The position numbers and the translations under genes were made by a program. Below the pieces are notes generated by a model, which saw nothing but the letters and a program-made list of their open reading frames with translations, did no database searches and was not told the DNA's origin. A stretch of 64,000 nt of DNA from Candidatus Pacearchaeota archaeon (GTDB lineage: Archaea > Nanobdellota > Nanobdellia > Pacearchaeales > GW2011-AR1), in contig JBBDJQ010000001.1 in assembly GCA_040879765.1 (NCBI GenBank), positions 271,747-335,746 on the forward strand, given 5' to 3'. Every line of letters begins with the position of its first letter. The first letter of the stretch is position 1. Positions 11,043 to 62,887 of this stretch are shown here, in pieces.

Positions 11043-11282
11043 AAAAAACCTATAGAAAATCTCTTTTTATCTTTTATTGCACTTAGAAATATATCATGAA
11101 ACTTACTTGCTTCTAGCCCTTCTTAGTCTTCTCTTTCTTTTCTCTTTCTTTAGCCTTTTACGTTGCCATTTCCAACGCATTTGCCATCGCTTTTTCCAAC
11201 GTCTTGATGATCTTTTCATTTTTGAATTCGTATTATTTTTTGATAAAGAAGTCTGGAGAAATTTGTTTATAAAGCTTTTGAG

Positions 11283-46466: not shown

Positions 46467-46497
46467 AATTTATAAAAGAATTATTTTTTAATAAATT

Positions 46498-46905
46498 ATG
46501 AATAAATTAGTTTTAGGGGTTGTTGTTTTGCTTGTTGTTGCATTAGGGGGATTTTTTCTATATCTAAATTCAAATCCAAACTCTTCTGGAAGTGTAGTGG
46601 ATGAAGTTAATGGAGATGTAAAAACTTTTGTTTTGGAAGGTGAAAATTTTAGATATGTGATGGATGGAGTTGATAACCCTGAAATTAGAGTTAACCAAGG
46701 TGACATTGTCAGAATTGAATTTACAAGTGTTGGAGGTTTCCATGATTGGGTTGTTAATGAGTTTGATGCCAGCACAGAAAGAGTAAACGAGGGTGGTTTA
46801 GCAATGGTGGAATTTATTGCAGATAAAAAAGGAGAATTCGAATATTATTGCAGTGTTGGAAGCCATAGGGAATTTGGAATGTTTGGAAAATTCATAGTTG
46901 AATAA
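46498..46905 (+). CDS. Cupredoxin (plastocyanin/amicyanin-like blue copper protein)
   Basis: Signal/TM N-terminus; type-1 copper ligands H...YYCSVGSHREFGMFG (C-x-x-H-x4-M). Confidence 0.6.
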   Translation: MNKLVLGVVVLLVVALGGFFLYLNSNPNSSGSVVDEVNGDVKTFVLEGENFRYVMDGVDNPEIRVNQGDIVRIEFTSVGGFHDWVVNEFDASTERVNEGGLAMVEFIADKKGEFEYYCSVGSHREFGMFGKFIVE

Positions 46906-47368
46906 AATGAAAACTTGGCTAATTTCTTTGATAGTTGTTGGAATCCTTGGAGTTGTTTTATTTTCTATATTTTCATTTTCTCAAGATTCTGAAGAAATAG
47001 ATAATCTAAATGTTGGAAATGAAGTTGAAGATTCATTAGAAGATTCGGATGTCACTCTTGATGATGTAGATAATACTGATACAGTAGAAGGAATAGTTGA
47101 AAAAAGTTCAGAGCCTCAAACATTTACTATAGAGATAATGAATTTTGATTATTCTAATAATGAGCTTGCAATAAATTTAGGAGATGCTGTTATCTGGACA
47201 AATCAAGATTCTATTGGTCACACAGTTACTTCTGATTCTGGAGGTAAGATCAATTCTAGTTTGTTAAGTAAGGGAGAAACATATTCTAAAACATTTAATG
47301 AGGTTGGAAGCTTTTCATATCATTGCGCTCCACATCCTTATATGAAAGGGACAATTGTTGTCGAGTAA
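46898..47368 (+). CDS. Cupredoxin (blue copper protein), second copy
   Basis: YHCAPHPYMKGTIVV (C-x-x-H-x-x-M); the start overlaps the previous gene by 8 nt. Confidence 0.6.
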   Translation: MNKMKTWLISLIVVGILGVVLFSIFSFSQDSEEIDNLNVGNEVEDSLEDSDVTLDDVDNTDTVEGIVEKSSEPQTFTIEIMNFDYSNNELAINLGDAVIWTNQDSIGHTVTSDSGGKINSSLLSKGETYSKTFNEVGSFSYHCAPHPYMKGTIVVE

Positions 47369-47409: not shown

Positions 47410-47604
47410 GCCCCGATAGTTCAGAGGCCAAGAATGCCGCCCTCTCAAAACTCCGAAAGTCAATTTGATATTCTAATAAAATAACTGGAGGAGAAAAAAG
47501 AGGAGTGACTTTGACTCGATGAGAGAAGATTAAGTCTAGCATCTAAATGCAGCTTGCTCTTTTGGAGAACGGCGGTGACCCGAGTTCGAATCTCGGTCGG
47601 GGCG
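47410..47604 (+). tRNA. tRNA-Glu (CTC) interrupted by a ~122-nt intron (47448-47569)
   Basis: Exon 1: GCCCCGA-TA-GTTC-AGAGGCCAA-GAAT-G-CCGCC-CTCTCA. Exon 2: C-GGCGG-TGAC-CCGAG-TTCGAAT-CTCGG-TCGGGGC-G. The acceptor and anticodon stems pair perfectly once the insert is removed. Confidence 0.6.
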
Positions 47605-47663: not shown

Positions 47664-47915
47664 ATGCCGAAAGATAATGATAAACTAAAAGAAATTGTTG
47701 GAGGAACGTTTAAGAGAGTTGTTTCTGATTTGATAGTTGGAATATTATTCTATGCCTTTATGCCAATTCATTGGATTTTTGTAGTTATGTTTATTTTATT
47801 CATTGGGGGAAATATTTATACAATAATTTATTCTGCAATTGAATTAAATGACTTTAAGCCATTGATCTATTTCTTAATGACAAATTGGGTAGGAGGTTCA
47901 GATGGCGAACAATAA
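47664..47915 (+). CDS. Small membrane protein
   Basis: Two TM helices; overlaps the int start. Confidence 0.3.
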   Translation: MPKDNDKLKEIVGGTFKRVVSDLIVGILFYAFMPIHWIFVVMFILFIGGNIYTIIYSAIELNDFKPLIYFLMTNWVGGSDGEQ

Positions 47916-49011
47916 GATTGAAGTGCATAATCGTAATGTTGAAGTAAGAATAAAGGCTACAAAAGATTGGAATATTTCAGATGAAGATAAAAAAGATTTC
48001 TATAAATTTTTAGATGATTTGGGTTTGGGCAAAGTTAACAGAGGTTTTAAGATTTCAAGAAGTAGACAGTTAAAATATTTGGATTTGTTAAGAACGCCTC
48101 TTGAATTTTGGAATAAGCCAACTTCTAAATTAACCCTTAAAGATGTTGAGAAATTTGAGAAAGCTTTGAGTAGCGATGAAATAAGATCTAAGATAAAGGG
48201 TGTTTACGCAAATGAAACAAAGAGGGATATTAAATTAGCACTAAGAATTTATTTGAAATGGAAATTGGGAGTTGCCAAAGCTTCTGAATTAGCTGGATGG
48301 TTAGACACGAGAAGAGTCGCAAGAACACCCGATTACATTAAAGAAGTTGATGTTGAGAAGTTGTATAAGGCTTGTAAGTCTGCCTCTGAGAGGTTCTTAA
48401 TCGCCGTTCTTTTCGACTCTGGTGCAAGAATAGAAGAATTTCTTAATATTAGATATGAAGACTTAGAATTGCCAAGAGAAGGCGAAGAATTTGTTAAACT
48501 TACATTAAAAGAAGAATATTCTAAGACTAAGGGGAGAACGATAAGACTTTATTGGAAATACAGTTTAGAAGCAGTAAAAGATTTTCAAAAAGAAAGAGAA
48601 CAGGAGGGAATAAAAGCGAATGAACAAATGTATCCCAAAGCTTACGACCCTACAAGAAAATTTTTACAAAGATTGGGACAGAAGATTTTGAATCGCTCAG
48701 TATCACCTCATTTATTTAGACATAGTTCAGCAACTTATTACGCAAATAAGATGAATAGGCAAGAATTATGTTATCGTTATGGATGGGCTTTTAGTTCTCA
48801 TATGCCAGACACATATATTTCAAGATCAGGAATGATGAATAAAGAATTAGATGTTAAGTTTAAGGCAACAGAAATCAACAAAGTCCAATCTGAATTAGAA
48901 AAACAAAGACAAGAGAATAAGATATTAAAAGACCAAATGCAAAGACAATTAGACGAGATTAGAGAGCAATTAGCAGGACAAAGCCTTAAGCAAATAGCCA
49001 AAAAATCATAA
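47902..49011 (+). CDS. int: Tyrosine recombinase / integrase
   Basis: Catalytic region with Arg-I (SGARIEE), HLFRHSSATYYA (H-x-x-R-H box II) and a downstream Tyr (LCYRYGW). Located immediately 3' of a tRNA gene. Confidence 0.85.
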   Translation: MANNKIEVHNRNVEVRIKATKDWNISDEDKKDFYKFLDDLGLGKVNRGFKISRSRQLKYLDLLRTPLEFWNKPTSKLTLKDVEKFEKALSSDEIRSKIKGVYANETKRDIKLALRIYLKWKLGVAKASELAGWLDTRRVARTPDYIKEVDVEKLYKACKSASERFLIAVLFDSGARIEEFLNIRYEDLELPREGEEFVKLTLKEEYSKTKGRTIRLYWKYSLEAVKDFQKEREQEGIKANEQMYPKAYDPTRKFLQRLGQKILNRSVSPHLFRHSSATYYANKMNRQELCYRYGWAFSSHMPDTYISRSGMMNKELDVKFKATEINKVQSELEKQRQENKILKDQMQRQLDEIREQLAGQSLKQIAKKS

Positions 49012-49023: not shown

Positions 49024-49656
49024 ATGAACGAACTAAAGAAGGAACGAAAAAAAAGAGAAGTTAACAAGTTGCCAAAACTTTGGAAGGAGATATTTAGAGT
49101 TTTTATGCTTGATAAAAGAGAAGGATTAAAAGAGCCAGAGATTGTTAAAAAAAAGAAAGATGGCAGAATAAAAAAGTTGACTATTCCACAAAAAAATCAA
49201 ATTAAAAGATACAATTATTTAAAAAATAAGAAAAATAATTTTTTTAAAAAACTTACAGCAGAAGAAATACTTATGCTTGCTGGAATAAAATATTCCGAGA
49301 GAACTCAAACTCATTTAAGGGATCATTTAGAAAAATTATCAAAGAAAAAAATAATTATCAAAGAAAAAGCAAAAGATAGAAAGAATAAATTTCTCTGGAA
49401 AATGAATTATGATTTTAATGAGGGTTTGAAATTATTGTATGAATGTCCTTGGATTCTGGAGGATATGAAGGGAAACGAAGATGCATTTGAATTAAGTATG
49501 GATAATATGAGGCAAAAAACAAAGATTTTGAAAAGTCACGCAAAGACACTTATTGTTTCAAGCAAAGATTCTAAGGAGACAGAGGTAGTTCAGGAGATTT
49601 ATGATAACTGGGAAGATAAAGAACATATGAATGATTTGATTAAAAAATTTACTTAA
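49024..49656 (+). CDS. Lys-rich hypothetical protein
   Basis: ORF only. Confidence 0.4.
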   Translation: MNELKKERKKREVNKLPKLWKEIFRVFMLDKREGLKEPEIVKKKKDGRIKKLTIPQKNQIKRYNYLKNKKNNFFKKLTAEEILMLAGIKYSERTQTHLRDHLEKLSKKKIIIKEKAKDRKNKFLWKMNYDFNEGLKLLYECPWILEDMKGNEDAFELSMDNMRQKTKILKSHAKTLIVSSKDSKETEVVQEIYDNWEDKEHMNDLIKKFT

Positions 49657-49807
49657 AATTTACTACCTTTTTTTCTAAAAAAGTTCGGAATGTGATTTAA
49701 TAATAGAAGAATAATATCTTCTATGGAAAAAGTTAACGAACTGATAACTATCAAATTAAAGAAGAGCGATCTAAAGAAAATTCTTCTTCGGAATTGGGAT
49801 TTATTAG

Positions 49808-50533
49808 ATGAAGATACAAAGCGAATGCTCGTTATATCTGAATTGGTCGATGGAGGTTCTTATGATGGGAACTGAACAAAAAAGATGTAATAAGTGTGGA
49901 CAGCTTTCTTACAATGGACAATTTAAAGGAAATAGATTTTTCTGTTCTGATTGTTTAGAATATCATAGGATATCTGACGCCGATACTTATGGGGACAAAC
50001 TGTCAAGAGAACAGCTAAAACAAGAACAAACAAGAAAAGCACAAGAACAATTGTTGAGATTAGTTAGAAGAGCCAAGCCAGTGGATTTTTACACAAAAAA
50101 AATAAACAAAACAGGAACTAATTTTTTAGAAGTTGATGTTAGTCCTTATGCACATTCTATTGATTGGGGAAAAATGAGGCAAGATTATGGAGAGCTTTTA
50201 AAAGATAAGGTCTCAGATCCAAAGTTACTCAATGATATTATAAAATATAGGGATAAGATTCTGAAACATAGGCTATCTTGTGATGTTAAATTGCTTTCTA
50301 AAGGGACAGAAGTGGGGGAACTTAAGGTATACCGAATTTTAGTAGAAGATGGACACCATATTGTAAAATTTTGGACAAATAAGGAAGTTGATCCTTCTAG
50401 TGTAAATAATCAAGTATATCTTTTTCAAAGGGAACTAAGTTTAAGTGGAAGGGGTGGAGAAGTTAGAGTTTCAAAAGTTCCCTCTAGATATATCAATATC
50501 GACGAAGTTAAATTAAAATTCAGTTTTTCTTAA
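49808..50533 (+). CDS. Zinc-finger protein; the probable true start is the MMGTEQKRCNKCG Met at about 49862
   Basis: CNKCG...CSDCLEYH zinc ribbon at the N-terminus. Confidence 0.4.
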   Translation: MKIQSECSLYLNWSMEVLMMGTEQKRCNKCGQLSYNGQFKGNRFFCSDCLEYHRISDADTYGDKLSREQLKQEQTRKAQEQLLRLVRRAKPVDFYTKKINKTGTNFLEVDVSPYAHSIDWGKMRQDYGELLKDKVSDPKLLNDIIKYRDKILKHRLSCDVKLLSKGTEVGELKVYRILVEDGHHIVKFWTNKEVDPSSVNNQVYLFQRELSLSGRGGEVRVSKVPSRYINIDEVKLKFSFS

Positions 50534-50534
50534 A

Positions 50535-50750
50535 ATGGATGAACGGTATACCTCCGAAATAATTGGAAACAAAGTTGTAGTTTGGACTATTGCTGGGTTG
50601 AAGTATGTTGGAGAAACTATCTGGATAGATTCTATTTCTATTTGGGTTAAAGATACAATTGCAAGATGTGAAAGGATTATTCCATTAACTGCAATTTCCA
50701 GTATTGAATTAAGATCGACAAATGCTATCTCGGAGGGATATAGAAAATGA
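50535..50750 (+). CDS. Small hypothetical protein
   Basis: ORF packed between neighbours with a 4-nt overlap. Confidence 0.3.
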   Translation: MDERYTSEIIGNKVVVWTIAGLKYVGETIWIDSISIWVKDTIARCERIIPLTAISSIELRSTNAISEGYRK

Positions 50751-51940
50751 AGAGCATAACTCTCGGAGAATTAAGGAAACAAGTTGGAGACTACCTCTAT
50801 ATGGAAGATACTGATTTTTTAGATTTGGTCTTAGCAACCTTTCTTTCTACGAATCAAACAAATTGTAAATTATGGTTATTTATTATTGGAATGAGTGGGG
50901 GAGGTAAATCAGAATTAATTAATCTTTTTGACGATGATAGGAATGGAACATATTTTTTAAACAAAATAACGGCGAATGCAATTATTACAGGATATAAATC
51001 TAAAACCTTCGATACTGATTTGGTTGAACAACTTAGAAATAAAATACTTCTAATTCCTGAAATGGCTTCAATACTTGGGCAAACAAAAGAAAATCGTTCT
51101 CAAATATTAGCTCAATTAAGATCACTTCACGACGGGAAGATGGGAGTTGTGTCAGGTTATGGAAAAGCTAAGAACTATACCAATCTAAATGTTACTTTAG
51201 TCGCTTGTTCAACTCCGATAATTGATAGAATGATTTCACTAGGACAAGAATTAGGATCAAGAGAATTAGTTTATCGTTTAGCTAAAATGGATTCTGAAAA
51301 GTTAATGCAAAGGATAAAAGAAAATTCAAATAAAAATAAATCAAAGATAAGGGAGGAGCTAAAAGAATTAGTCTATTTATTTCTTAAGGAAAGGAAATTT
51401 AATCCGGTTCATATCCCTGAAGAAATAGCAGACAATATCAAAAATTTTGCACATCTATTAACTTATCTTAGAGCTTCTGTAAATATTGATGACAGGACAG
51501 GAGAATTGGAAGGAGAGCCTCATTTAGAAGCTCCCACAAGGGTTTACGATCAATTATTAACTTACTTTCGAGCATTAAAGTCTTTAGATGATAATTACTC
51601 AGATGAAAAAGCGTTAAATCTTATCGGCAAAATAGTGATTTCAAGTGTAGACCCCGTTAGACTAAAAGTTTTAAAATTTCTAATGGAAAACAAATTAGGA
51701 AATATTGAAGGATTCGGAAAGGGACAAATTGCCAATGAAATAAGAATAAGTCCTAAGCGAGTTTTTGGGGAGGCGTGTGTTCTTTCTTGTTTAGATTTTG
51801 TTAGGATGGAATCTGAAGAAATTAAGAAAACTGAGGATAAATATTGGCATAAATTTGAATTAAATTCCGGGAATCCTTTCGTTAGACATCTTGCAAAATA
51901 CTTAGAAATTCAATTAGAACCAGATTACGAAAAAATATAG
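50747..51940 (+). CDS. P-loop NTPase, putatively a superfamily-3-like replicative helicase
   Basis: Walker A IIGMSGGGKSEL, Walker B-like ILLIPEMAS, and a motif-C-like NLNVTLVACSTP segment. Confidence 0.5.
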   Translation: MKSITLGELRKQVGDYLYMEDTDFLDLVLATFLSTNQTNCKLWLFIIGMSGGGKSELINLFDDDRNGTYFLNKITANAIITGYKSKTFDTDLVEQLRNKILLIPEMASILGQTKENRSQILAQLRSLHDGKMGVVSGYGKAKNYTNLNVTLVACSTPIIDRMISLGQELGSRELVYRLAKMDSEKLMQRIKENSNKNKSKIREELKELVYLFLKERKFNPVHIPEEIADNIKNFAHLLTYLRASVNIDDRTGELEGEPHLEAPTRVYDQLLTYFRALKSLDDNYSDEKALNLIGKIVISSVDPVRLKVLKFLMENKLGNIEGFGKGQIANEIRISPKRVFGEACVLSCLDFVRMESEEIKKTEDKYWHKFELNSGNPFVRHLAKYLEIQLEPDYEKI

Positions 51941-51987: not shown

Positions 51988-53808
51988 ATGATAATAGCCT
52001 TAGATACAGAAACCTACAAATTTAACAAAGAAAAAGAAGTTTATGAGCCTAGTTTGGATGCTAGAGATTTTGTTTTGGGTTGCATTAAAATTGATAAAAA
52101 GAAAAAGCCTTTATGGTTCACAAGCCCTGAAGAAATGTTTGACTTTTTATTGGATTTTATTGATAAAAGAAAAAAGGAAGGACATAATTGTTATATTTAT
52201 GCCCACAATCATTCTTATGATTTATACGCCTATGCAAAGAATAGAATTAATGATGTTGAAATATTAAAAGTCAAACAACAGAAGCCTTTGTTCGCTCTAC
52301 TAAACGAAACTGGCTTGTTATTGGACACATTATCTTTCTATAAATGTCCCTTGAAAAAGGTCGGAAAATTAGTGGGGCTTCCAAAGTTAGAAATGCCTGA
52401 TGAAGTTAAGGATTTATCGGAGTTAAAAGAATATCTCTTAAGAGATGTAGAAATCGTTATGGAGTCTATTAAGATGTTGCGTGATGTCTTGAAGGGATTG
52501 TCTCACCGACCCAAGAAAATGTTAACAGCTGGAAGTTTGGCTATGAATTATTTTAAAACCCATTGTAAAAGGGAGGATTTTGAAGGTATACCTTATTCGG
52601 CTTACTTATATCGGAAAGGGACAATCCATCAGACAAAATATAATAAGTTTATCCGAAGAGCTTTGCGTGGAGGGAGATGTGAATGTTTTAGGCAAGATAA
52701 ATTCAAAAAAGTAAGTATGATTGATATTAATTCTCTTTATCCGTTTGTTATGGCAGAAATTATGAAAATACCAGACATCCTAAAAGAAAGAAGACATTAT
52801 AATATTCAAGGAATGATCCCAGATGAAGAAATTCTTGGAAAGATTGGTGTTGTCAAAGCTAAGGTTAAATTTCCTAAGAAAAAAATGGGATATTTACCAA
52901 CAAAGAATGCAAGAACGGGAAAAGGAATATTTTTTCCTTGCAATGGAGAGGTTGTTACAGGATATTGGACAACTATGGAAATAAATAATGCAATAAAAGA
53001 AGGCTATGAGGTTTTAGAAATATACGAAGCTGTTCTCTATGGGGAGTTACCATTCAATCCATTCACTAAACTAATGAGGGGGTTGTATGATTTAAGGAAA
53101 AAAAGTCAGGAGGAAATGGGTTATGTCATTAAATTATTAATGAACTCTTTAGCTGGGAAATTTGCTCAATATAGAGGGGATACTGAAAGAGCAGTTTGTC
53201 ACAGACAAGACATTTTAGAATATGAAAAAAGTGGGTTTGAGATTCAATCAGACTTAGGAGAGGAATATTTTTTATCAAAAGAAGGAGAGAAGAAAGTTCC
53301 GCCTTATGCTCATCCAATATTTACAATTTTAATTAATGCCTATGCAAGAGATTATCTATATTGGCAAATGAAGAAAATCCCATTTGAAGATTTAGTTTAT
53401 TGCGATACTGATGCGATTGCATTTGTTGGAGATCATTTAGACAAATATGACATTGGAGATAAATTGGGAGAATTTAAAACAGTGTTTGAAAATGAAGCTG
53501 GAGAATTTATCAAGGAAAAGGATTATAGATTTACAGATAAAGAAGGCGAAATATTAAAGGTAGTTTGTGCAGGAAGCACTAACAGAGAACTAACGCAGGG
53601 ACAAAGTTGGGGAGAAGAAGAAATCGTGAATAAGAAAATGTATACTTATAATATGGGTTGTAAAACAGGGAATTTTGATAAGGTTGGATCATTCTTTGAT
53701 GTTCATACGAAAATCAATCCATTAAAGAGAAAGAGAGAAATGAAGTTTCCACCACAATTTGAGGAGTTTACTCCTGAAGATTTGAAGAGTTTTTCTGAAG
53801 AAGATTAA
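51988..53808 (+). CDS. Protein-primed-type (phi29-like) family B DNA polymerase, 606 aa
   Basis: Exo I ALDTET, Exo II HNHSYD, motif A DINSLYP, motif B KLLMNSLAGKF, motif C YCDTDA, KxY (KDY), and VVCAGSTN comparable to phi29 VKCAGMTD. Confidence 0.85.
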   Translation: MIIALDTETYKFNKEKEVYEPSLDARDFVLGCIKIDKKKKPLWFTSPEEMFDFLLDFIDKRKKEGHNCYIYAHNHSYDLYAYAKNRINDVEILKVKQQKPLFALLNETGLLLDTLSFYKCPLKKVGKLVGLPKLEMPDEVKDLSELKEYLLRDVEIVMESIKMLRDVLKGLSHRPKKMLTAGSLAMNYFKTHCKREDFEGIPYSAYLYRKGTIHQTKYNKFIRRALRGGRCECFRQDKFKKVSMIDINSLYPFVMAEIMKIPDILKERRHYNIQGMIPDEEILGKIGVVKAKVKFPKKKMGYLPTKNARTGKGIFFPCNGEVVTGYWTTMEINNAIKEGYEVLEIYEAVLYGELPFNPFTKLMRGLYDLRKKSQEEMGYVIKLLMNSLAGKFAQYRGDTERAVCHRQDILEYEKSGFEIQSDLGEEYFLSKEGEKKVPPYAHPIFTILINAYARDYLYWQMKKIPFEDLVYCDTDAIAFVGDHLDKYDIGDKLGEFKTVFENEAGEFIKEKDYRFTDKEGEILKVVCAGSTNRELTQGQSWGEEEIVNKKMYTYNMGCKTGNFDKVGSFFDVHTKINPLKRKREMKFPPQFEEFTPEDLKSFSEED

Positions 53809-53838
53809 ATATAAATAACTCCTCTTAATATTAAATTA

Positions 53839-54933
53839 ATGGTAGAAAATAAATGGCAACACTTTGTTCCTCAGTTTTATTTTAAATTCTTTTCTGAAGA
53901 CGATAAAAACATCGGAATTTTTAATCTAAAAAGGCAAAGTCATTTTAAGGGAGCATTCGAAAACCAATCTGCTAAAAATTTCTTTTATAGTGAAAATGTT
54001 GAAATAGAAAAATCATTTTCTCCTCTTGAAGGAAAATTTAAGGATGTTTTAAAGAGATTAATCTTGGATGGTTTTAAACAACTAGATTCTCGTGATTATT
54101 TTGAAGTTTTGAGATTTATAACTTTCCAATTTGATAGAACAGAGTTATCAAAAAAAGCCTCTAAAGATTATACTCAAAAGTTTGTAGAGAATGTAATGAA
54201 GCCAATGATGAAGGCTAATAAGGAATTGAGAGAAAAGTTATCTCCTGAAGATATAGACAATGTTAAGATTACTCATCCCGCTGATTTTTTATATAGTGTT
54301 TTGCTCTCCTTGGAAGCGAACATTCTTTTAACAGACTTAGTTCCTGTTTTAATTAAAAATAAGACAGAGGCGGATTTTATTTTTAGTGACAATCCAATTA
54401 TAAAATATAATGGTATTTATTACTCCGAGGGGCATAGTTTTACTGGTTATCAATCGCCGGGACTTTTGGTTTTCTTTCCATTGAATCCCAAGCTTATGAT
54501 TATGTTATTTGATCCTGTTTATTATAATATAAAACTTGAGCAAAATAATGAATTTTCCTTAAATGATTTAGAAGACGTAAGTAAACTCAATAAATTCCAA
54601 TTTCATAATTGTATGAAGAATGTTTACTATTCTGATAAAAAAAGCAAAAAAGGTATAGACCTAATTTCTGAAGAATTTTTTAGTGAATATTCAAAAGGAG
54701 AAAATTTGGCTCAGATGAGGGAAATACCTAATTGGAGAGGTAATGGAAATAGTTTGTTAGTCTCTTCAAGGAAAAGTATCTCTGAAAGAATTAAATTTAA
54801 CTTCTTAAAATATGCTTCTCCAAAACAAACAATAGCCACATTTAGAGATAAAAAATTATGTGATTTATTTAATGAAAAAATAAAAGCAATTGAAGAAATG
54901 ATGGAACTTAAAAAATCTAAGAAAAAGAATTAA
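53839..54933 (+). CDS. DUF4238 family protein
   Basis: N-terminal WQHFVPQFYFKFF (H-x-V-P-Q-x-Y-L-x-x-F signature) and an internal FSDNPII motif. Confidence 0.55.
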   Translation: MVENKWQHFVPQFYFKFFSEDDKNIGIFNLKRQSHFKGAFENQSAKNFFYSENVEIEKSFSPLEGKFKDVLKRLILDGFKQLDSRDYFEVLRFITFQFDRTELSKKASKDYTQKFVENVMKPMMKANKELREKLSPEDIDNVKITHPADFLYSVLLSLEANILLTDLVPVLIKNKTEADFIFSDNPIIKYNGIYYSEGHSFTGYQSPGLLVFFPLNPKLMIMLFDPVYYNIKLEQNNEFSLNDLEDVSKLNKFQFHNCMKNVYYSDKKSKKGIDLISEEFFSEYSKGENLAQMREIPNWRGNGNSLLVSSRKSISERIKFNFLKYASPKQTIATFRDKKLCDLFNEKIKAIEEMMELKKSKKKN

Positions 54934-55195
54934 CTTCTTTCTGCAATTTTTTGCCCTTATCTGTAATTTGATAGAGTTTATTGTAAGGGTCGTTCTTGTT
55001 AAGACAAATGACTAATTTTTGTTCTTCGAAGTCTCTTAAATGTCTGCTCATTTCTCTCAGACTGATTGTATGTTCAAGCTTTTTCCTAAGCTTATTCGAC
55101 ATAAATGGATCGGAAGGAAGACTAAGAAAAACATCCTTTCTTTGATTGCCTCTAAGCATCCATATAGCTTCTTTAGTCACTTTTTGCATTGACAT
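54917..55195 (-). CDS. Small protein, possibly a winged-helix regulator
   Basis: This is the only minus-strand ORF in the block. It is basic, HTH-like (MSRHLRDFEEQKLV), and divergent from the next gene. Confidence 0.3.
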   Translation of the reverse strand: MSMQKVTKEAIWMLRGNQRKDVFLSLPSDPFMSNKLRKKLEHTISLREMSRHLRDFEEQKLVICLNKNDPYNKLYQITDKGKKLQKEVNSFS

Positions 55196-55286
55196 TAGGT
55201 AGACAAGAGCCTATAAATTGGGGATTGACAACAGATAGATAGATTTAAATAATAAATTTGATAAGAAAAAGTATGGATTCAGAAAT

Positions 55287-55706
55287 TTGGCTCTGGGAAA
55301 CTATTCCTTATATCTTTGGTTTACTAATCGGAGTTGGGGTAGTTATCTGGTTAAAGAAAAAGAAAAAATGAAAGGCGAAGCAACACTTGAAGCAAGAAAA
55401 TTATATAATGCTCTAAAAAAAGAGAAAGTCCCAGCATATTTAGAAAAGTGGGATGGATACAAACATATTGATATAGCTATTCCGGAAGCAATGATTAATA
55501 TAGAAATTGATGGCTGTCATCACAATCTTCACTCATTTCAAGCCTTGGCAGATTTGAAAAGAACTTATCATTCATTCAAAAAAGGTTATTTCACTCTAAG
55601 AATACCTAATTCTCTAATAAGAAATCATTTTGATGAAGTTGTAGATTTGGTTATCGAAATATTGAATGAAAGCAATGATCAATTAGATGAAGAATATTAT
55701 GACTAG
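55287..55706 (+). CDS. DUF559 / Vsr-like endonuclease-fold protein; the probable true start is at about 55366
   Basis: HIDIAIPEAMINIEIDGCHHN resembles the DUF559 core (IEvDG..H). Confidence 0.45.
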   Translation: MALGNYSLYLWFTNRSWGSYLVKEKEKMKGEATLEARKLYNALKKEKVPAYLEKWDGYKHIDIAIPEAMINIEIDGCHHNLHSFQALADLKRTYHSFKKGYFTLRIPNSLIRNHFDEVVDLVIEILNESNDQLDEEYYD

Positions 55707-55745
55707 TATGAAAAGGATTAAAAATGGCATTTTGTTTTCTTAAAG

Positions 55746-57815
55746 ATGGAAGCAAAGGCAAGTAATTTATTAAGATTCTTGGATGGGACAAAACAATTTT
55801 TTATTCCTAAATATCAAAGACCTTATAGTTGGGAAATAAAACAATGTGATCAACTTTGGAAAGATATTATTAATGCACCTGAAAAAGGATATTTCATTGG
55901 TTCAATCGTTTATGTTGGGAAGGGATTGCAAACAATTACATCTGTTCCAGAATTTTTAGTTATTGATGGGCAACAAAGATTAACAACAATTTCCTTACTA
56001 CTTTATGCACTCAGTGAAGCAATTGAAGAGAACGGGAAGCTAGATTTGGGAACTGATCAAATAAATTCTGAAAAAATTAAAGGTTACTATTTATTCAATA
56101 CTCGAGAAGAAGGAGATATGAAATATAAATTACTTCTTTCTAAAAAAGACAAAGAGACTTTTATGAACTTGTTAGATGGATTAAAATTAGGAGAAGCTCC
56201 TACAAATATTAAAAGAAATTATGAATTTTTCAAATCAAAAATTTTAAAAACTGATTTAAAGAAAATTTATGAAGGAATAGCAAAATTAATGATTATTGAT
56301 GTGGCTTTAGATTATGAAAAAGATAATCCTCAATTGATTTTTGAAAGTTTAAATTCTACTGGCTTAGATTTGACTCAAAGCGATTTAATTAGAAATTTTG
56401 TTCTTATGGGATTAGAGAAAGAAAAGCAAGATGAATTATATTCAAATTATTGGTATCCAATGGAAGAAATGTTCTCCGGTTCAGATTCTCGGGCGGAGTT
56501 TGATTATTTTGTTAGAGATTACTTAACTATGAAAATGAAAAATATTCCAAAAGTAGGAGAGGTTTATGAAGAATATAAAAAATATCTATCTGAAAATAAA
56601 TTAGATCTTTATGAAGCAATTAAAGAACTTAATCAGTTCGCTAAACTTTATACAAATATGATATTCTCTAAATCTAATTCTAAATTAGACGAGATATTTT
56701 CTAATCTAAAAATCTTAAAGGTTGATGTAGCCTATCCTTTCTTATTAAAAATATATGATGATTATAATTCAAATAAAATTTCAATAGAAGATTTCGAATT
56801 AATCTTAAGGAATATTGAAAGTTATGTTTTTAGAAGATTAATTTGTGGTATCCCAACTAATTCAATGAATAAAACTTTTGCAACTCTTTACTCTGAAATT
56901 GAACAAGAAAATTATATTGAAAGTTTTTTGGCAAATATGCAATTAAAAGATTCATATAGGAGACTACCAACAGATGAAGAGTTTACAGCTGAACTTTTAA
57001 CAAAAGATGTATACAATCTTAGGAATAGAAATTATCTTCTTAGAAAATTAGAGAACAAAGATAGAAAAGAAGTTGTTAACGTGGAGAGTTATACTATTGA
57101 ACATATTATGCCACAAAAAGAAGGGCTTACTCCTGAATGGAAGGAAGAGTTAGGAGAAAACTGGAAGGAAGTTCACGAGAAATATTTACACACATTGGGA
57201 AATTTAACCTTAACCGGGTATAATTCTGAATTAAGTTGTAAACCTTTCAAAGAAAAACAAAGCATGGTTGGAGGATTTAAAGATAGTCCAATAAGATTAA
57301 ACAGAGATTTAGCTTTAATTAATTCTTGGAATGAAGAAAACATTTTAGAGAGAGCAAAAAAATTGGCTAAAATTTGTTCCGAGATTTGGAGAGTCCCAAT
57401 TTTATCAGAGGAAATTCTAAATAAATATAGAAAAATTGAGGAGACAAAACAAAAAGACTATACTTTAGAGGATCATATTCAATTAGCAGAAGGAGAGCAA
57501 ATGAAACCTATTTTTGAAGAATTAAGAAAAAGAATACTAAATATTGATTCTTCTGTAAGAGAAGAAATTTTGAAACTATACATCGCATATAAAAGTAATA
57601 CGAATTTTGTAGACATTATACCTCAAAAATCTAAATTGAATTTAACTATAAATCTCAAATTTGATGAAATTGAAGATCCGAAGGGGAGCTGTAAAGATAT
57701 AACTGGACAGGGTAGATGGGGAAATGGAGACGTAAGATTTTCTATTGGTTCAATGGAAGACCTGGATTATGCAATGTTTTTAATTAATCAATCATATGAA
57801 AAACATTCTGAATAA
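55746..57815 (+). CDS. DUF262 (ParB-like nuclease, N-terminal) + DUF1524 (His-Me finger, C-terminal) protein; GmrSD-like putative modification-dependent endonuclease
   Basis: FFIPKYQRPYSWEIKQC and VIDGQQRLTT are DUF262 signatures; C-terminal IEHIMPQK...H..GNLTL is DUF1524-like. Confidence 0.75.
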   Translation: MEAKASNLLRFLDGTKQFFIPKYQRPYSWEIKQCDQLWKDIINAPEKGYFIGSIVYVGKGLQTITSVPEFLVIDGQQRLTTISLLLYALSEAIEENGKLDLGTDQINSEKIKGYYLFNTREEGDMKYKLLLSKKDKETFMNLLDGLKLGEAPTNIKRNYEFFKSKILKTDLKKIYEGIAKLMIIDVALDYEKDNPQLIFESLNSTGLDLTQSDLIRNFVLMGLEKEKQDELYSNYWYPMEEMFSGSDSRAEFDYFVRDYLTMKMKNIPKVGEVYEEYKKYLSENKLDLYEAIKELNQFAKLYTNMIFSKSNSKLDEIFSNLKILKVDVAYPFLLKIYDDYNSNKISIEDFELILRNIESYVFRRLICGIPTNSMNKTFATLYSEIEQENYIESFLANMQLKDSYRRLPTDEEFTAELLTKDVYNLRNRNYLLRKLENKDRKEVVNVESYTIEHIMPQKEGLTPEWKEELGENWKEVHEKYLHTLGNLTLTGYNSELSCKPFKEKQSMVGGFKDSPIRLNRDLALINSWNEENILERAKKLAKICSEIWRVPILSEEILNKYRKIEETKQKDYTLEDHIQLAEGEQMKPIFEELRKRILNIDSSVREEILKLYIAYKSNTNFVDIIPQKSKLNLTINLKFDEIEDPKGSCKDITGQGRWGNGDVRFSIGSMEDLDYAMFLINQSYEKHSE

Positions 57816-57858
57816 GAATCTTAGTTAACTTTTTAACGCTCCAATCTTTACTACAATT

Positions 57859-59322
57859 ATGGCAATGTTAACAAAATCAAATTATTTACTGGGATTGCAA
57901 TGTCCTAAATTGCTTTGGGTGGCTAAGAATGATAAAGAGCGTATTCCAAAACCAACAGAAATAGAGCAGAAGAAATTTGATGATGGAACTTTGGTTGGAG
58001 AATTGGCTACTCAAGTATTTCCTAATGGAACAGATCTGTCAAAATTAGGGTTTAAAGAGAATATTGATAAAACAAAAGAAGCCATAAAAAATAAGGAAAT
58101 AATTTATGAAGCCGGATTTTTAGAAGACAATTTATTTTCTAGAGCAGATATTTTAAATCCTGTTGGAGACGAGTGGGATATAATAGAAGTTAAGTCAGCT
58201 ACAAAGGTTAAGGATATCAACCTTCACGATGTTGCTTTTCAAAAATATGTATATGAAAAAGCTGGGCTAAAAATTAGAAAGTGTTTCTTAATGCACATAA
58301 ATAATGAATATGTTAAAAATGGAGAAATTGAACCTTCGGAGTTATTTGTTCAAACAGATATAACCGAGAAGATAGAAGAATTTTCTGAAAATTTAAGATC
58401 CAACATTGAAAAAATGTTTAAAGTGATTGAGGGAGAAGAACCAGAATTTTGTATTGACGATATCCTAACGATAGAATACGGTAATATTTGTTTAGATGAT
58501 TTTATGGACTCTCTTCCAGAAAATAATATTTTTGAGTTTTATCGTATGTTAAAGAAAAAGATTGTTGAATTATATAAAGAAGGCTGTAAGTGTATGGACG
58601 ATGTTCCCGAATCAGTAAAACTTAACGAGAAACAAGCAATACAAAAAAGATTATGCTGTGACGGAGGAGTTCATATAAACAAACAAGGCATAAATAATTT
58701 TTTGAGAAATTTGGAATATCCTATTTACTATTTAGATTTTGAAACAATTAATCCTATACTTCCAAAATTTGAAGGAATGAAATCTTATCAAAGAATACCT
58801 TTTCAGTTTTCATTACATATACAAAAACAGAAAGGTGGAGAACTAAAACATATTTCTTTTTTAGCAGATGGGACAAGTGATCCGAGACCAAAGTTTATGC
58901 AATCTTTAAAAGATAATTTGGGAAATAAGGGAAGTGTCCTTGTTTATAATCAAGGATTTGAAAAAGGTGTTATGAATGAATGTGCAACAGCTTTTCCTGA
59001 ATTTAGGAAATGGTATGATGAGGTTATTTTACATAGGATAAAAGACCTCTGGGATGTCTTTAGAAACTTTGATTATTATGATCCAAAACAAAAGGGATCT
59101 TGTTCTATAAAATACGTATTGCCCGTAATGAGTGATTTGTCCTATAAAGATTTAGAACACGTCAAGAAGGGAGATCAGGCTTCTTTTGAATGGGAAAGAG
59201 TTACTTACAATGAAATTGACTATAAAGAAAAACAAAAGATAAGAGACGCTTTGGAAAAATATTGTTGTTTAGATACTCTTGCAGAAGTTAAGATTTTGGA
59301 TAAGCTGTATGAGGTTGTCTAA
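57859..59322 (+). CDS. DUF2779-like protein with a PD-(D/E)xK nuclease core and a C-terminal Cys cluster
   Basis: The N-terminus MLTKSNYLLGLQCPKLLWV matches the DUF2779 start. WDIIEVKSATK is a D..EVK nuclease motif, and several Cys residues sit near the C-terminus. Confidence 0.5.
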   Translation: MAMLTKSNYLLGLQCPKLLWVAKNDKERIPKPTEIEQKKFDDGTLVGELATQVFPNGTDLSKLGFKENIDKTKEAIKNKEIIYEAGFLEDNLFSRADILNPVGDEWDIIEVKSATKVKDINLHDVAFQKYVYEKAGLKIRKCFLMHINNEYVKNGEIEPSELFVQTDITEKIEEFSENLRSNIEKMFKVIEGEEPEFCIDDILTIEYGNICLDDFMDSLPENNIFEFYRMLKKKIVELYKEGCKCMDDVPESVKLNEKQAIQKRLCCDGGVHINKQGINNFLRNLEYPIYYLDFETINPILPKFEGMKSYQRIPFQFSLHIQKQKGGELKHISFLADGTSDPRPKFMQSLKDNLGNKGSVLVYNQGFEKGVMNECATAFPEFRKWYDEVILHRIKDLWDVFRNFDYYDPKQKGSCSIKYVLPVMSDLSYKDLEHVKKGDQASFEWERVTYNEIDYKEKQKIRDALEKYCCLDTLAEVKILDKLYEVV

Positions 59323-59399: not shown

Positions 59400-60401
59400 A
59401 TGAAAAAGAGGTATAATGTCATTGATTTATTTTCTGGAGCAGGAGGTTTGTCTTTGGGATTTGAAAATGAAGGATTTGAAAATATATTTTCAATAGATTT
59501 GATGAAAGATTATTGTGACACATATAGAAAGAATTTTCCACATCACAAATTAATTCAAGAGGATATATTGAAATTAACTTCTGAAAAAATCAGAAAAATC
59601 CTTGGAAATAATAAAGTTGATGTAATTATTGGAGGTCCGCCCTGTCAAGGATTTAGTATGGCGGGGAATATTGGAAGAACTTTTATTGATGACCCAAGAA
59701 ATCATCTATTTAGAGAATTTGCAAGAGTTGTTTCAGTAGTAAAGCCTAAAATTTTTGTTATGGAGAATGTTGCAAGACTATTTACCCATAATAAGGGAAA
59801 AACAAAAGAAGAGATAATAGATTCATTTGAAAAATTGGGTTATAAGGTAGACTGCAAGATTTTATGTTCAGCCGATTATGGGGTTCCTCAGATAAGGAAC
59901 AGAGTTATTTTCATAGGAAATAAAATAAATAAAAAGAATATTTTCCCCCAAAAGAATGTTAAAAAATATAAAACAATTAAAGAAGCTATTGGAAATTTAC
60001 CTCAATTAAAATCAGGAGAAGTTTCAACTATTTCAAATCATCAAGCAATGAATCATACAGGGGATATGTTAAAAAAAATGGATTTTATCAAAGATGGAGG
60101 AGATAGGTTCCAAATACCAAATAATCTTAGACCTAAAAGTGGAGACATTAGAAAATACATAAAATACGATAGCTCCAAACCTTCTATCTGTATAACTGGG
60201 GATATGAGAAAAGTTTTTCATTATAATCAAAATAGGGCTTTAACAGTAAGAGAGCTAGCAAGAATACAATCTTTCCCAGATTCATTTTTATTTGAGGGAA
60301 ATAAAATTTCACAGCAACAACAAGTAGGGAATGCAGTTCCTCCCTTAATGGCTCAAGAAATTGCAAAGGAAATAAAAAAGATGTTAAAGAAAAATGAATA
60401 A
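59400..60401 (+). CDS. dcm: DNA cytosine-5 methyltransferase
   Basis: Motif I DLFSGAGGLSLGF, motif IV GGPPCQGFS, motif VI ENV, motif X QQVGNAVPP. Confidence 0.85.
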   Translation: MKKRYNVIDLFSGAGGLSLGFENEGFENIFSIDLMKDYCDTYRKNFPHHKLIQEDILKLTSEKIRKILGNNKVDVIIGGPPCQGFSMAGNIGRTFIDDPRNHLFREFARVVSVVKPKIFVMENVARLFTHNKGKTKEEIIDSFEKLGYKVDCKILCSADYGVPQIRNRVIFIGNKINKKNIFPQKNVKKYKTIKEAIGNLPQLKSGEVSTISNHQAMNHTGDMLKKMDFIKDGGDRFQIPNNLRPKSGDIRKYIKYDSSKPSICITGDMRKVFHYNQNRALTVRELARIQSFPDSFLFEGNKISQQQQVGNAVPPLMAQEIAKEIKKMLKKNE

Positions 60402-61398
60402 ATTACCAAAGATAAATTTTATTGGAAATAAAGAGAAAATAGTAAGTTGGATATGCGAAAATATCCCTTCAGATGTAGAAACTATTTTTGATGCTTTTTC
60501 TGGAGGAGCATCTGTAAGTTATGAAGCAAAAAAAAGAGGTTTTAAGGTAATTAGTAATGATATCTTAAGTATAAATTATCTTTTATCTAAAGCAATAATT
60601 GAAAATAAAAAAGACACCTTTGATGAAAAAGATTTAAATCTTATATTTGAGGGAAAACCAATAAAAGGATTTATGTATAAAAATTATTCAGAAGTTTTTT
60701 TCTTCCCAAAAGAATGTATGGAATTAGATATATATAGAAAGAACATCGATAAATTAGATTCCGAAAATAAAAAAGCGTTAGCTTTTTCTTTAATTAGAAG
60801 AGCAATGATTCGTAAAATGCCTTATTCGAGATTTAATCTACCCTGGGATAAAATCAAACAACTTCGTGATGAAGAATATAGTTATAACAAATATAAAAGA
60901 AAAAGGGCATATCACAATAAGACAATCAAAGAACATTTTCTTGAGAACCTTCAAGAATATAATAAAGCAGTGTTTGATAATAATAAGAAAAACAAGGCAT
61001 ATAACAAAGATATTTTTGAGCTAATTCCTAAAATTAATGCAGACCTTATTTATTTGGACCCTCCTTATACGGGAACAATGAATAATTATTTTGGATTTTA
61101 TGGCTTAATCGATGAATATATTAAACAAGAGAAATTAAAACCCTTTAAAAATAATTTTATTGAAAAAAATAAATCCATTGAGCTTTTCGATAATTTATTC
61201 TCTAGACTAGGAAAATTTAAGTATTGGATTTTAAGTTATAATAATTCTTCATACCCCACTAAAGAGCAATTATTATCTTTATTGAAAAAATATTCCGATG
61301 ATGTTAAGGTTATAGAGAGGAAACATAATTATCAAGTAACTGGAAAATTGAAAAAAACTAAAAATAAAGAGTATCTTTTTATTGTTAAGAATAAATAA
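60394..61398 (+). CDS. Dam-like (D12 class) N6-adenine DNA methyltransferase
   Basis: N-terminal FIGNKEKI...IFDAFSGGASV and catalytic DPPY (IYLDPPYTG); overlaps dcm by 8 nt. Confidence 0.8.
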   Translation: MNKLPKINFIGNKEKIVSWICENIPSDVETIFDAFSGGASVSYEAKKRGFKVISNDILSINYLLSKAIIENKKDTFDEKDLNLIFEGKPIKGFMYKNYSEVFFFPKECMELDIYRKNIDKLDSENKKALAFSLIRRAMIRKMPYSRFNLPWDKIKQLRDEEYSYNKYKRKRAYHNKTIKEHFLENLQEYNKAVFDNNKKNKAYNKDIFELIPKINADLIYLDPPYTGTMNNYFGFYGLIDEYIKQEKLKPFKNNFIEKNKSIELFDNLFSRLGKFKYWILSYNNSSYPTKEQLLSLLKKYSDDVKVIERKHNYQVTGKLKKTKNKEYLFIVKNK

Positions 61399-62464
61399 AA
61401 TGGTCAAACAAAAAAATCAAGTATATGAAAAATATTGGAGCATAACTCTTGAATATACGGACATAAACGGAGAAAGATTTATAGGAACATTAAAAATAAT
61501 TGTCGACCATATTGATAAAAATAAGGGAAAATATTCCAAGGAAATTTATCAAGAATTACAAGAAAAAATCTATGAGAAATATCCAAAAAGAGACTATGCC
61601 TCTGTGAGAAAAAGTATAAATCAGTTTGTAAAATTGGGATTTATAAATTATAAATTAAAATCTTATAGTAAGGATTGTAAAACCTTTTTAGAAGCAAGAA
61701 CTAGTAGAAAAAGAAAGACGATCTTTTCCAAAATTGTTTACCAAAATTCAAGCTTTGACAGAGACATAACTAAGAAATCTGATAAAAGAGAAATCAACTT
61801 TTTATTAAAAACATTAGAAGAGGTTGGAAATTTATCCAAAGAAGATATTGTAGCTTTAATGACTCAAGAAATAGAAAAATATCCAAAAGGCTATCTTACC
61901 GAAGAGGAGTTATTAAAGGCTAAACAAAATGCAGAAGAAATTAGATTTCTTGAAAGAAAATATAATCAGGTAAGCCACTTCAGAACTGTTTTAGCTAAAT
62001 TAGATGATATCGTTTTTGTTTCTGGGAAGTTATATTTTGAAGATGATGCTAAAGTAATCTTTGGAGAGGACTTGAAAGAAGAAATAAAAACAAGGGATAA
62101 TTATCTACACAGACTTTATAAAAACCAATTAAAAGAAGAATCTGAAGAGAAAGAGGGGGAAATTATGTGTATGGTAGAACTATTAGACTATCCATCACTT
62201 GTGGCAAGCCATATAAAACCATTCATTAAATCAAATGAGGATGAAGCCTATGACCCAGAAAACGGATTATTATTAAGTAGAAATATGGATATTTTGTTTG
62301 ATCAGGGATATATTACTTTTTCAAATGAAGGTAAAATTATCCTTTCAAAAAGGTTATCACAAGATTTAAGAGAATTTCTTAAGGATTATACTTTAAAAAA
62401 GACTTATCTAACTCCAAAGAGATTAAGTTTTCTAAAATATCATAGAGAAAACGTCTTTCATTAA
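61382..62464 (+). CDS. HNH endonuclease, putative restriction enzyme: N-terminal uncharacterised region plus C-terminal HNH domain
   Basis: HIKPFIKSNEDEAYDPENGLLLSRNMDILFDQGYITF is an HNH (HNH_2-like) motif; overlaps the Dam-like gene by 17 nt. Confidence 0.7.
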   Translation: MLRINKMVKQKNQVYEKYWSITLEYTDINGERFIGTLKIIVDHIDKNKGKYSKEIYQELQEKIYEKYPKRDYASVRKSINQFVKLGFINYKLKSYSKDCKTFLEARTSRKRKTIFSKIVYQNSSFDRDITKKSDKREINFLLKTLEEVGNLSKEDIVALMTQEIEKYPKGYLTEEELLKAKQNAEEIRFLERKYNQVSHFRTVLAKLDDIVFVSGKLYFEDDAKVIFGEDLKEEIKTRDNYLHRLYKNQLKEESEEKEGEIMCMVELLDYPSLVASHIKPFIKSNEDEAYDPENGLLLSRNMDILFDQGYITFSNEGKIILSKRLSQDLREFLKDYTLKKTYLTPKRLSFLKYHRENVFH

Positions 62465-62498
62465 ACATTTCAGACATATCAACACTTTTACTCTGTAT

Positions 62499-62520
62499 CT
62501 CCTATATATATATATAGGAG
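62499..62520. repeat. 22-nt perfect palindrome CTCCTATATATATATATAGGAG
   Basis: Read directly; it lies about 35 nt after the HNH gene stop. Confidence 0.85.
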
Positions 62521-62670
62521 TTTTAGAGTGGTTTTATTGGTGGTGGTGTAATGGTGTTGATGATTGTGTGTGTAGTTTTGATGTGTGAATGTTAGTGTGT
62601 TTATAGTGGTTTGTGTGAAGTGTGTTTGGTGGTTGTTCTGGAAGTGTGTGTGGTTTGTGTGGGGTATATA
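62521..62670 (+). other. C-depleted G/T-rich tract: 150 nt with a single C on the plus strand
   Basis: Counted directly, GGTGGTGGTGTAATGGTGTTGATG...GTGTGTGGTTTGTGTGGGG. There is extreme strand compositional asymmetry and no ORF. Confidence 0.85.
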
Positions 62671-62887
62671 CTACGATTCGTTAGACTGAAATGAATTTCA
62701 AACTTTCTTTAGTCATTGTGAATGTTTTCTTCACTTCTTTCTGTTAAAGTTTTCAATTTTTCTATATTTATTAAACGAATTTGTAAGATTATGTTGGAAT
62801 ATTGTGAGATATAGAGTTTAGTTAGGTTGTGATTAGGTAAAACCCAAGTATAATTAAGATTAAAAATAGTTAACTTATGATAATTTT

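Follow-up and report, generated by a model that had tools for sequence, protein, structure and literature searches.

We analysed a stretch of DNA of 64,000 nucleotides (nt) that belongs, according to its source records, to a contig of 457 kb in a metagenome-assembled genome of Candidatus Pacearchaeota, a DPANN archaeon; this whole stretch is called the window in the following. Its positions 53,839 to 59,322 hold four genes on the plus strand, accompanied by one small gene on the minus strand, which a reading made from the letters and their translations (the sequence-only reading) had proposed to form a multi-gene anti-phage or addiction system. Our analysis assigns this block to the exchangeable part of an integrated mobile element about 15 kb long, at about 47.6-62.7 kb of the window, and shows that its genes are distributed and exchanged independently of one another. 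The block comprises the following genes:

53839..54933, plus strand: DUF4238 protein, 364 amino acids (aa), Pfam 117.7 bits against a cut-off of 27
54917..55195, minus strand: small winged helix-turn-helix (wHTH)-like protein, 92 aa, sub-threshold Pfam matches to HxlR, HTH_45 and HVO_A0261_N
55368..55706, plus strand: small DUF559 (Vsr-like) endonuclease, Pfam 26.5 bits against 20.6 (open reading frame as listed 55287-55706, 139 aa, TTG start)
55746..57815, plus strand: GmrSD-family (DUF262-DUF1524) type IV restriction enzyme with a C-terminal DUF5655, 689 aa, assigned by Pfam
57859..59322, plus strand: DUF2779 protein, a Cas4-like PD-(D/E)xK nuclease fused to a DEDDy 3'-5' exonuclease, 487 aa, Pfam 133.9 bits against 23.3 and structure prediction

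The four co-directional open reading frames (ORFs) and the 92-aa ORF on the opposite strand lie exactly where the sequence-only reading had placed them. Its domain assignments (DUF4238, DUF559, DUF262-DUF1524 and DUF2779) all score above the curated Pfam cut-offs, the motifs it quoted (HFVPQFYF, IEIDGCHH and D..EVK) are present in the sequences, and it rightly counted GmrSD among the type IV enzymes and recognised in DUF2779 a PD-(D/E)xK nuclease with Cas4-like features. Since each of the four proteins has many homologues, we consider them products of real genes. Pfam, PADLOC and tRNA evidence likewise bears out the location of the block on a mobile element beside a restriction-modification (R-M) module, and the label 'defence island' describes it fairly. 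The proposal of a single multi-gene system did not survive: in other genomes the genes are scattered singly, and the check for their co-occurrence came out against it. It is likely that the block is a mosaic of independently acquired defence and nuclease genes on a mobile element rather than one multi-gene system.

The block is recognised as element cargo because an integrase, a family-B DNA polymerase and a tRNA-Glu lie upstream of it, and an R-M operon and a conserved non-coding region lie downstream. The order along the element is tRNA-Glu, tyrosine integrase, polymerase, block, type II R-M operon and conserved non-coding end, with a set of backbone genes between integrase and polymerase:

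47410..47603, plus strand: intron-containing tRNA-Glu(CUC), sequence read by eye
47902..49011, plus strand: tyrosine integrase (Pfam Phage_integrase 46.5 bits; PHROG integrase; close copy in the sister element L003)
49024..51940, plus strand: backbone genes for proteins of 210 aa, 241 aa (zinc-ribbon-like cysteine pairs) and 71 aa and for a 397-aa P-loop protein (conservation in L003)
51988..53808, plus strand: family-B DNA polymerase of the protein-primed type (pPolB; Pfam DNA_pol_B_2 118.4 bits; PHROG DNA polymerase)
59400..62464, plus strand: type II R-M operon with a C5 cytosine methyltransferase, a D12-class N6-adenine methyltransferase and an HNH restriction endonuclease (Pfam, PADLOC)
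62491..62712, no strand given: conserved non-coding region after the cargo (palindrome, GT-rich tract and GAAATGAATTTCAA box)

Comparison with related elements reveals how the cargo is exchanged. L003 is a close sister: its integrase (92% identity), pPolB (87%), GmrSD (90%) and DUF2779 (86%) resemble those of the window, and its genes follow in the order pPolB, wHTH, two small ORFs, DUF559, GmrSD and DUF2779. It has no DUF4238, and its R-M module consists of an N4/N6 methyltransferase and an AlwI-type enzyme. At the DNA level, homology between the two elements breaks exactly around DUF4238 (53809-54934), which is thus an exact single-gene indel, and it stops 18 nt past the DUF2779 stop codon. 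The fragment L041 keeps wHTH, DUF559 and GmrSD, and its DUF4238 slot is taken up by an unrelated ORF longer than 337 aa. A distant element, L002, with a pPolB of 57% identity, has only DUF4238 and wHTH in common with the cargo region of the window (77.6% nucleotide identity); the remainder of its cargo is a PDDEXK_1 protein, a C5 methyltransferase, a BsuBI/PstI-type enzyme, a VRR_NUC protein and a faint HEPN match. Because the content of the slot after the polymerase differs between the window, L003, L041 and L002, this slot is a hotspot of cargo exchange. The window segment 47604-62712 and these three relatives form a family of Pacearchaeota/DPANN integrative elements that is characterised by a tyrosine integrase, a PolB of the protein-primed type with the motif CDTDAI, a cargo hotspot directly after the polymerase and an insertion adjoining tRNA-Glu or tRNA-Asp. 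Such elements in Pacearchaeota are not described in the literature that we searched.

The small minus-strand gene had been read as wHTH-like and as a possible regulator of the block. A wHTH-like protein is hinted at by the sub-threshold Pfam matches (HxlR 16.4 bits, cut-off 20.8), a PHROG transcription-regulator match (6e-4) and a PADLOC match (7.8e-5) to a model of a CARF-domain protein, in its C-terminal part. The protein is probably not a regulator dedicated to the block: the gene is conserved regardless of the cargo (87% identity in L003, 93% in L041 and 66% in L002), and it belongs to the element backbone because it is the sole gene of the block region kept in all four variants, including L002, which has no DUF559, GmrSD or DUF2779. 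Its product probably acts as a transcription regulator at the junction of replication genes and cargo.

Outside the element family, the genes of the block go separate ways. The joint occurrence of wHTH, DUF559, GmrSD and DUF2779 is confined to the window and its close sister elements, and with protein identities of 82-93% the gene order shared by these elements is inherited and no evidence of selection. Plasmid records contain DUF4238 (n=38) and DUF2779 (n=31) with no genus in common among those listed, and the defence-type neighbours varied across the 16 plasmid neighbourhoods that were sampled. From species-representative genomes we collected 31 DUF2779 loci, 24 of which had enough flanking sequence to read the neighbours. 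These amounted to 128 proteins in 112 Pfam families with no dominant partner; a full GmrSD directly adjoined DUF2779 in a single genome (locus L016), and neither DUF4238 nor DUF559 lay next to it in any of the 24 loci. Relatives of DUF4238 with 51-79% identity had no GmrSD and no DUF559 in their R-M contexts. A metagenome scan with GmrSD returned three loci, and GmrSD relatives of 35% identity in L042 and L043 have neither partner nearby. Two DUF559 relatives of middle divergence (63-72% identity) from DPANN genomes are each solitary among housekeeping genes; RNase J and proteasome/exosome genes flank the first, BatA and TsaD the second.

Several observations weigh against a mosaic on a mobile element. 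The order wHTH-DUF559-GmrSD-DUF2779 is the same in the window and L003, its first three genes recur in L041, and the gaps between the same-strand genes measure only 39 and 43 nt, which would allow for co-transcription and cooperation. In L016, a locus from Woesearchaeota, a GmrSD with DUF5655 (25% identity) lies directly before DUF2779 (52%) with a 4-nt overlap, the only independent adjacency that was found. DUF2779 lies about 7 kb from DUF4238 in L004, L005 and L009. The neighbourhood samples are small: DUF2779 was viewed in 24 + 9 + 8 contexts, DUF4238 in about 14 and DUF559 in two. A member of the DUF2779 family is quasi-essential in the minimal Mycoplasma JCVI-syn3.0 (PMC13621843). Finally, the right attachment site (attR) was not found: the left end of the element was compared with 62.4-64.9 kb in search of a second tRNA 3' end or of repeats of at least 9-11 nt, and only chance-level matches emerged. 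As no attR repeat was found, the right boundary of the element is an inferred one.

The conserved synteny could mean that wHTH, DUF559, GmrSD-DUF5655 and DUF2779 are one cooperating module of three or four genes, in which GmrSD would nick or cut modified invader DNA, DUF2779 would degrade the resulting ends and DUF559 would serve as a second nuclease or as a specificity factor. The short co-directional gaps in the window, the retention of the order in L003 and L041 and the arrangement in L016 speak for it. Positions 7021-13794 of L016 encode a CARF-wHTH protein (Csa3-like), GmrSD with DUF5655 and DUF2779, joined by 4-nt overlaps and followed by a MazG-like protein and a Schlafen-type helicase (PADLOC PDC-S41), so that a CARF-wHTH regulator precedes the GmrSD-DUF2779 pair; the locus looks like a packed defence island. 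On bacterial plasmids, too, the gene directly upstream of DUF2779 often encodes a nucleoside triphosphatase (NTPase), and sometimes a PLD nuclease is found nearby. However, the syntenic elements are the close relatives described above, the 24 genomes yielded a single GmrSD-DUF2779 adjacency, and the upstream NTPases on plasmids are of unrelated families. A fixed ATPase partner of DUF2779 related to the GmrSD NTPase was rejected, as five of these plasmid NTPases belong to unrelated families (Cdc48-like AAA+, GHKL, tandem AAA and NACHT). The solitary DUF559 relatives and the partnerless GmrSD relatives in L042 and L043 also argue against such a module, and characterised GmrSD enzymes act as single proteins (PMC4437046, PMC8565348). 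We consider a cooperating module improbable. DUF4238 has no part in this proposal and is separated from DUF559-GmrSD-DUF2779 by the convergent wHTH gene. In the mosaic that we favour, the tight clustering of these genes on a mobile element should not be over-read as functional unity.

GmrSD is the member of the block with the clearest family identity. Both characteristic domains are recognised in a single chain (GmrSD_N 135.3 bits, cut-off 33.2; GmrSD_C 91.3 bits, cut-off 23) and the motifs expected of DUF262 and of the DUF1524 His-Me finger are intact, with DGQQR at residue 74, EHI at 452 and GNL at 485. PADLOC reports Orf5 with 586 bits as well as HEC-06, mREase_IV and PDC-S18. The fusion of a ParB-like DUF262 NTPase with a DUF1524 His-Me finger is shared with the type IV enzymes Eco94GmrSD, BrxU and SspE (PMC4619093, PMC4437046, PMC8565348). 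Unlike these, the window protein carries an additional C-terminal DUF5655 (56.1 bits, cut-off 24), which had gone unmentioned in the sequence-only reading and is also matched by the PADLOC candidate PDC-S18. Its nearest relatives of solved structure are the DUF262 protein 9jfl and SspE, and its sequence similarity to solved members is very distant. Judging from family membership, GmrSD would cut DNA bearing modified bases, in a reaction stimulated by NTP. Because the methyltransferases of the element itself make 5-methylcytosine (m5C) and N6-methyladenine (m6A), its targets are presumably modifications other than m5C and m6A.

DUF4238 belongs to PF14022 and carries the N-terminal QH(F/Y)VPxFY motif of this family in the form HFVPQFYF at residue 8; in an alignment of 35 sequences, K5, Q7, H8, P11, F13 and F15 are invariant. 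Further invariant residues of the protein are E64, R100, D166, D184, N191, D225, N251 and Q254. The AlphaFold2 model of the protein has a predicted local distance difference test score (pLDDT) of 88. It matches no fold in the PDB, and a sequence search of solved structures gave nothing useful. Against BFVD, the sole significant match of the model is a protein of Stenotrophomonas phage Smp131, which we take to be a P2-like phage. No PADLOC model matches DUF4238. The sequence-only reading had credited none of the three families beside GmrSD with an established role. This does not hold for DUF4238, of which one member, from the E. coli P2 prophage hotspot, is a validated single-gene anti-T7 system that DefenseFinder detects (PMC9122126, Rousset et al. 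2022), nor for DUF2779, which has been dissected in silico as a fusion of Cas4-like and DEDD nucleases (PMC13621843, PMC3985635). The window gene shares with the validated system the PF14022 domain, the mobility as a single gene and a position within a variable mobile-element hotspot. It differs in its archaeal origin, in an identity of only about 25-30% to members from bacteria and phages, and in that DUF4238 of its clade mostly closes an R-M operon. We therefore regard DUF4238, by these features, as a stand-alone defence-type gene in the variable slot of the element.

The link of DUF4238 to restriction is a regular one within its clade. Relatives with 51-56% identity close an R-M operon in every context that was retrieved, often with an overlap of 8-17 nt with the previous gene; these operons comprise three type I arrangements (hsdM-hsdS-DUF4238) and one double N4/N6 methyltransferase module, and in all, DUF4238 relatives stand at the end of four or five different R-M operons. 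In L002, DUF4238 comes after the C5 methyltransferase and the BsuBI/PstI-type enzyme. R-M-terminal DUF4238 genes lie in L004-L009, L047, L048/L049, L050 and L002, at about 8001-11080 in each locus. The embedding of PrrC in type Ic hsd loci offers a parallel to DUF4238 in R-M operons. On the eight plasmids sampled for it, DUF4238 has defence-type neighbours of various kinds, and about three of these plasmids show an R-M link. By analogy with its family, DUF4238 would confer single-gene protection against phages; nothing in the window protein suggests a nuclease. Validated as a defence protein but opaque in its mechanism, and with a confident model that has no solved relative, DUF4238 merits study of its structure and biochemistry.

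DUF2779 matches PF11074, and the catalytic residues of both of its nuclease domains are conserved. The N-terminal, Cas4-like part has D107, E110, K112 (within DIIEVK at residue 107) and QxxxY. In the C-terminal DEDD exonuclease a tyrosine replaces the histidine (Y468-x3-D472). The structure prediction confirms the modelled two-nuclease fold, in agreement with earlier work (PMC13621843), and the fold is similar to MGME1, Dna2, MrfB and the exonuclease domains of PolB. The domain architecture, an N-terminal Cas4-like nuclease followed by a DEDD exonuclease with tyrosine, is that of the solo-Cas4-DEDD nucleases, represented by MMSYN1_0389 (PMC13621843) and covered by a survey of RNase H-like proteins (PMC3985635). 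The clade of the window protein has three invariant cysteines (C15, C142 and C469), whereas the Mycoplasma protein has two and a Cas4-type Fe-S cluster four; a further difference from the solo-Cas4-DEDD nucleases is that DUF2779 of the window is cargo of a mobile element. PADLOC gave only weak Cas4 matches, and a sequence search of solved structures with DUF2779 returned nothing useful. NCBIfam and PHROG searches with the four block proteins were equally uninformative, with a far sub-threshold UU173 match of DUF2779 as the only hit. By way of its Cas4-like and DEDDy domains, DUF2779 would degrade DNA ends from both directions.

Such an activity need not serve immunity. The quasi-essentiality of one family member in a minimal Mycoplasma makes a housekeeping rather than a defence role of DUF2779 conceivable: DUF2779, and possibly DUF559, might be DNA-maintenance nucleases, either of the element in replication, end processing or recombination, or of the host in repair. 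The essentiality in JCVI-syn3.0 (PMC13621843), the similarity of the fold to repair and replication nucleases and the wide distribution and high conservation of DUF2779 in DPANN (more than 5,700 matches, the best 120 at 63-86% identity) are consistent with this, as are the different Cas4/RecB-like nucleases of other element variants (PDDEXK_1 in L002) and the housekeeping genes that surround DUF559 relatives. On the other hand, the neighbours of DUF2779 are variable and include families of defence islands such as WYL, ResIII, Bro-N, N6_Mtase, SLFN helicase, NACHT, PLD and HEPN; the gene lies in the exchangeable cargo, outside the conserved replication module; and some genomes carry two copies (L011), which would be atypical for a core repair gene. 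We keep maintenance as a tentative alternative to a defence role.

A different role is suggested by what lies downstream of DUF2779. Among nine DPANN contexts with DUF2779 of at least 62% identity, seven have a DNA methyltransferase or R-M component within three genes downstream (the window, L003, L004, L010, L011, L044 and the P0055 contig), with varying module types. This adjacency suggests either an insertion hotspot or a role as restriction helper. In the latter case, DUF2779 would be tied to the downstream R-M module and not to GmrSD, and would degrade restriction fragments in organisms that are presumed to lack RecBCD and AddAB, for which two exonuclease domains of opposite polarity would be well suited. 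However, neither the type nor the orientation of the R-M modules is constant, and outside DPANN, R-M neighbours were in the minority among the 24 contexts. The association may also reflect a hotspot of R-M insertion or the general clustering of defence genes. Moreover, because the homology of the sister elements breaks right after DUF2779, DUF2779 and the R-M module are not inherited as a unit, which counts against a helper. We find it rather unlikely that DUF2779 has this role here. A broader version would make DPANN DUF2779 a general restriction helper at the upstream edge of R-M and type IV modules, standing in for the presumably missing RecBCD and AddAB, and at the same time DUF4238 a second-line effector embedded in R-M operons; we give this joint proposal little credence as well. 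If it were true, DUF2779 and DUF4238 would both appear in the window as accessory genes, carried by a pipolin-like pPolB element of an archaeal family that has not been described before. Independently of this, two regularities in the neighbourhoods deserve a census, namely the terminal position of DUF4238 in R-M operons and the position of DUF2779 directly upstream of R-M modules.

DUF559 is the smallest of the four proteins. Its translation probably begins at the ATG at 55368, for a product of 112 aa, because DNA homology with L003 resumes at 55366 and many relatives have about 105-125 aa. The protein scores above the gathering threshold of PF04480 and retains the acidic and histidine core of the family; across 28 homologues E26, D29, K32, D35, E46, D48, H52 and R78 are invariant, and IEIDGCHH lies at residue 72. 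A sequence search of solved structures found no relative. More than 500 homologues exist, with 52-69% identity even in Bacteroidota and Leptospira. Many of them have an N-terminal CxxC...CxxC zinc ribbon that the window protein lacks. The distribution suggests that DUF559 is a promiscuous, possibly selfish, solitary nuclease gene.

Taken as a mosaic, the cargo would not require cooperation between its products. Each module is expected to act alone, and together they would provide layered protection of host and element against viruses and rival elements; this anti-virus role, like all the biochemical activities, is inferred. Besides GmrSD, DUF4238 and DUF2779, the type II R-M system would cut unmethylated invaders. 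The operon has the cognate methyltransferases and the endonuclease of a type II system side by side, with Pfam scores of 270.7 bits for DNA_methylase, 135.2 for MethyltransfD12 and 38.2 for HNH_2, PADLOC scores of 369 and 497 bits for MTase_II and 358 bits for REase_II, and gene overlaps of 8 and 17 nt. Its combination of m5C and m6A methyltransferases with an HNH endonuclease presumably resembles a type IIS arrangement of the MnlI type.

The element itself invites comparison with known polymerase-encoding elements. Its polymerase contains the motifs DTET, SLYP, NSLAGK and CDTDAI (motif C) and is the predicted replication gene of the element; KTRG and TTDG were looked for in its sequence and are not there. 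Searching solved structures by sequence with the polymerase yielded nothing useful, and a scan of a viral contig collection with the polymerase alignment, GmrSD and DUF4238 detected no relatives. Pipolins are integrative elements that encode a piPolB, serve as reservoirs of defence genes and have lengths centred at about 20 kb (PMC11551731, PMC5695915). The window element resembles them in its small size (about 15 kb), its own family-B polymerase of the pPolB/piPolB cluster, its tyrosine recombinase, the insertion at a tRNA 3' end and the combination of a conserved core with a cargo that can be exchanged and includes R-M and other defence genes as well as nucleases and HTH proteins; the swapping of cargo between relatives was observed directly. 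It differs in its host, a DPANN archaeon, and in the canonical PolC motif CDTDAI of its polymerase, where piPolBs have SxTTDG together with KTRG instead of KxY (PMC5695915). Flanking direct repeats were searched for around the window element and not found. A pipolin in the strict sense was rejected for the polymerase without KTRG and SxTTDG. Only nine piPolBs were recovered from about 13,000 archaeal assemblies in a survey of pipolins (PMC11551731).

A casposon was also rejected, as Pfam scans of all element genes revealed no Cas1. Casposons are self-synthesising elements with a pPolB and Cas1. Like them, the window element is an integrated archaeal element with a polymerase of the pPolB type, but it uses a tyrosine recombinase at a tRNA, and terminal inverted repeats were not among the repeats found. 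Judged by their genes, DPANN archaea carry small elements with PolB and integrase that behave like bacterial pipolins, with a polymerase that is not a piPolB. The component families were known before; what is new here is minor and consists of the element family, the links of DUF4238 and DUF2779 to R-M modules and a DUF4238 fold that has no solved relative.

Among the backbone genes, the 241-aa (73% identity), 71-aa (44%) and 397-aa (75%) proteins have counterparts in L003, where the 210-aa gene is swapped. The 397-aa P-loop protein shows a weak TniB-like AAA match, and PHROG and NCBIfam searches with the genes at 49024..51940 returned no match. No paralogues of the block genes were found elsewhere in the window. 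The conserved non-coding region at the other end of the element contains a perfect TATA-rich palindrome, CTCCTATATATATATATAGGAG, a GT-rich tract of 141 nt with a single C and a box of the form GAAATGAATTTCAA(A/T)CTTTCTT. The composition of the GT-rich tract is unique within the window, and an Rfam search of the GT-rich region gave no match. A matching arrangement lies at 12550-12760 of L002 in spite of the polymerase identity of only 57%, and 43 nt of the region are 95% identical to L002:12550-12592. The segment 62491-62712 could be an element end, an origin or an RNA.

At the left end, ARAGORN and Rfam did not detect the tRNA-Glu(CUC) at 47410-47603, which was found only by eye. Its acceptor arms GCCCCGA/TCGGGGC pair, the T-arm reads CCGAG-TTCGAAT-CTCGG, and the anticodon loop CTCTCA is followed by an intron of about 125 nt. 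The 3' end lies about 300 nt before the integrase gene, and the tRNA is the likely integration target, on the left attachment site (attL) side of the element. Of the relatives, L002 adjoins an intron-less tRNA-Glu(CUC) and L003 a tRNA-Asp-like sequence. On the host side, outside the element, the window contains a second intron-containing tRNA of 123 nt (44619-44741, minus strand, Rfam), and a gene for a DoxX protein together with two genes for cupredoxin/plastocyanin-like proteins occupies 46068-47368 on the plus strand.

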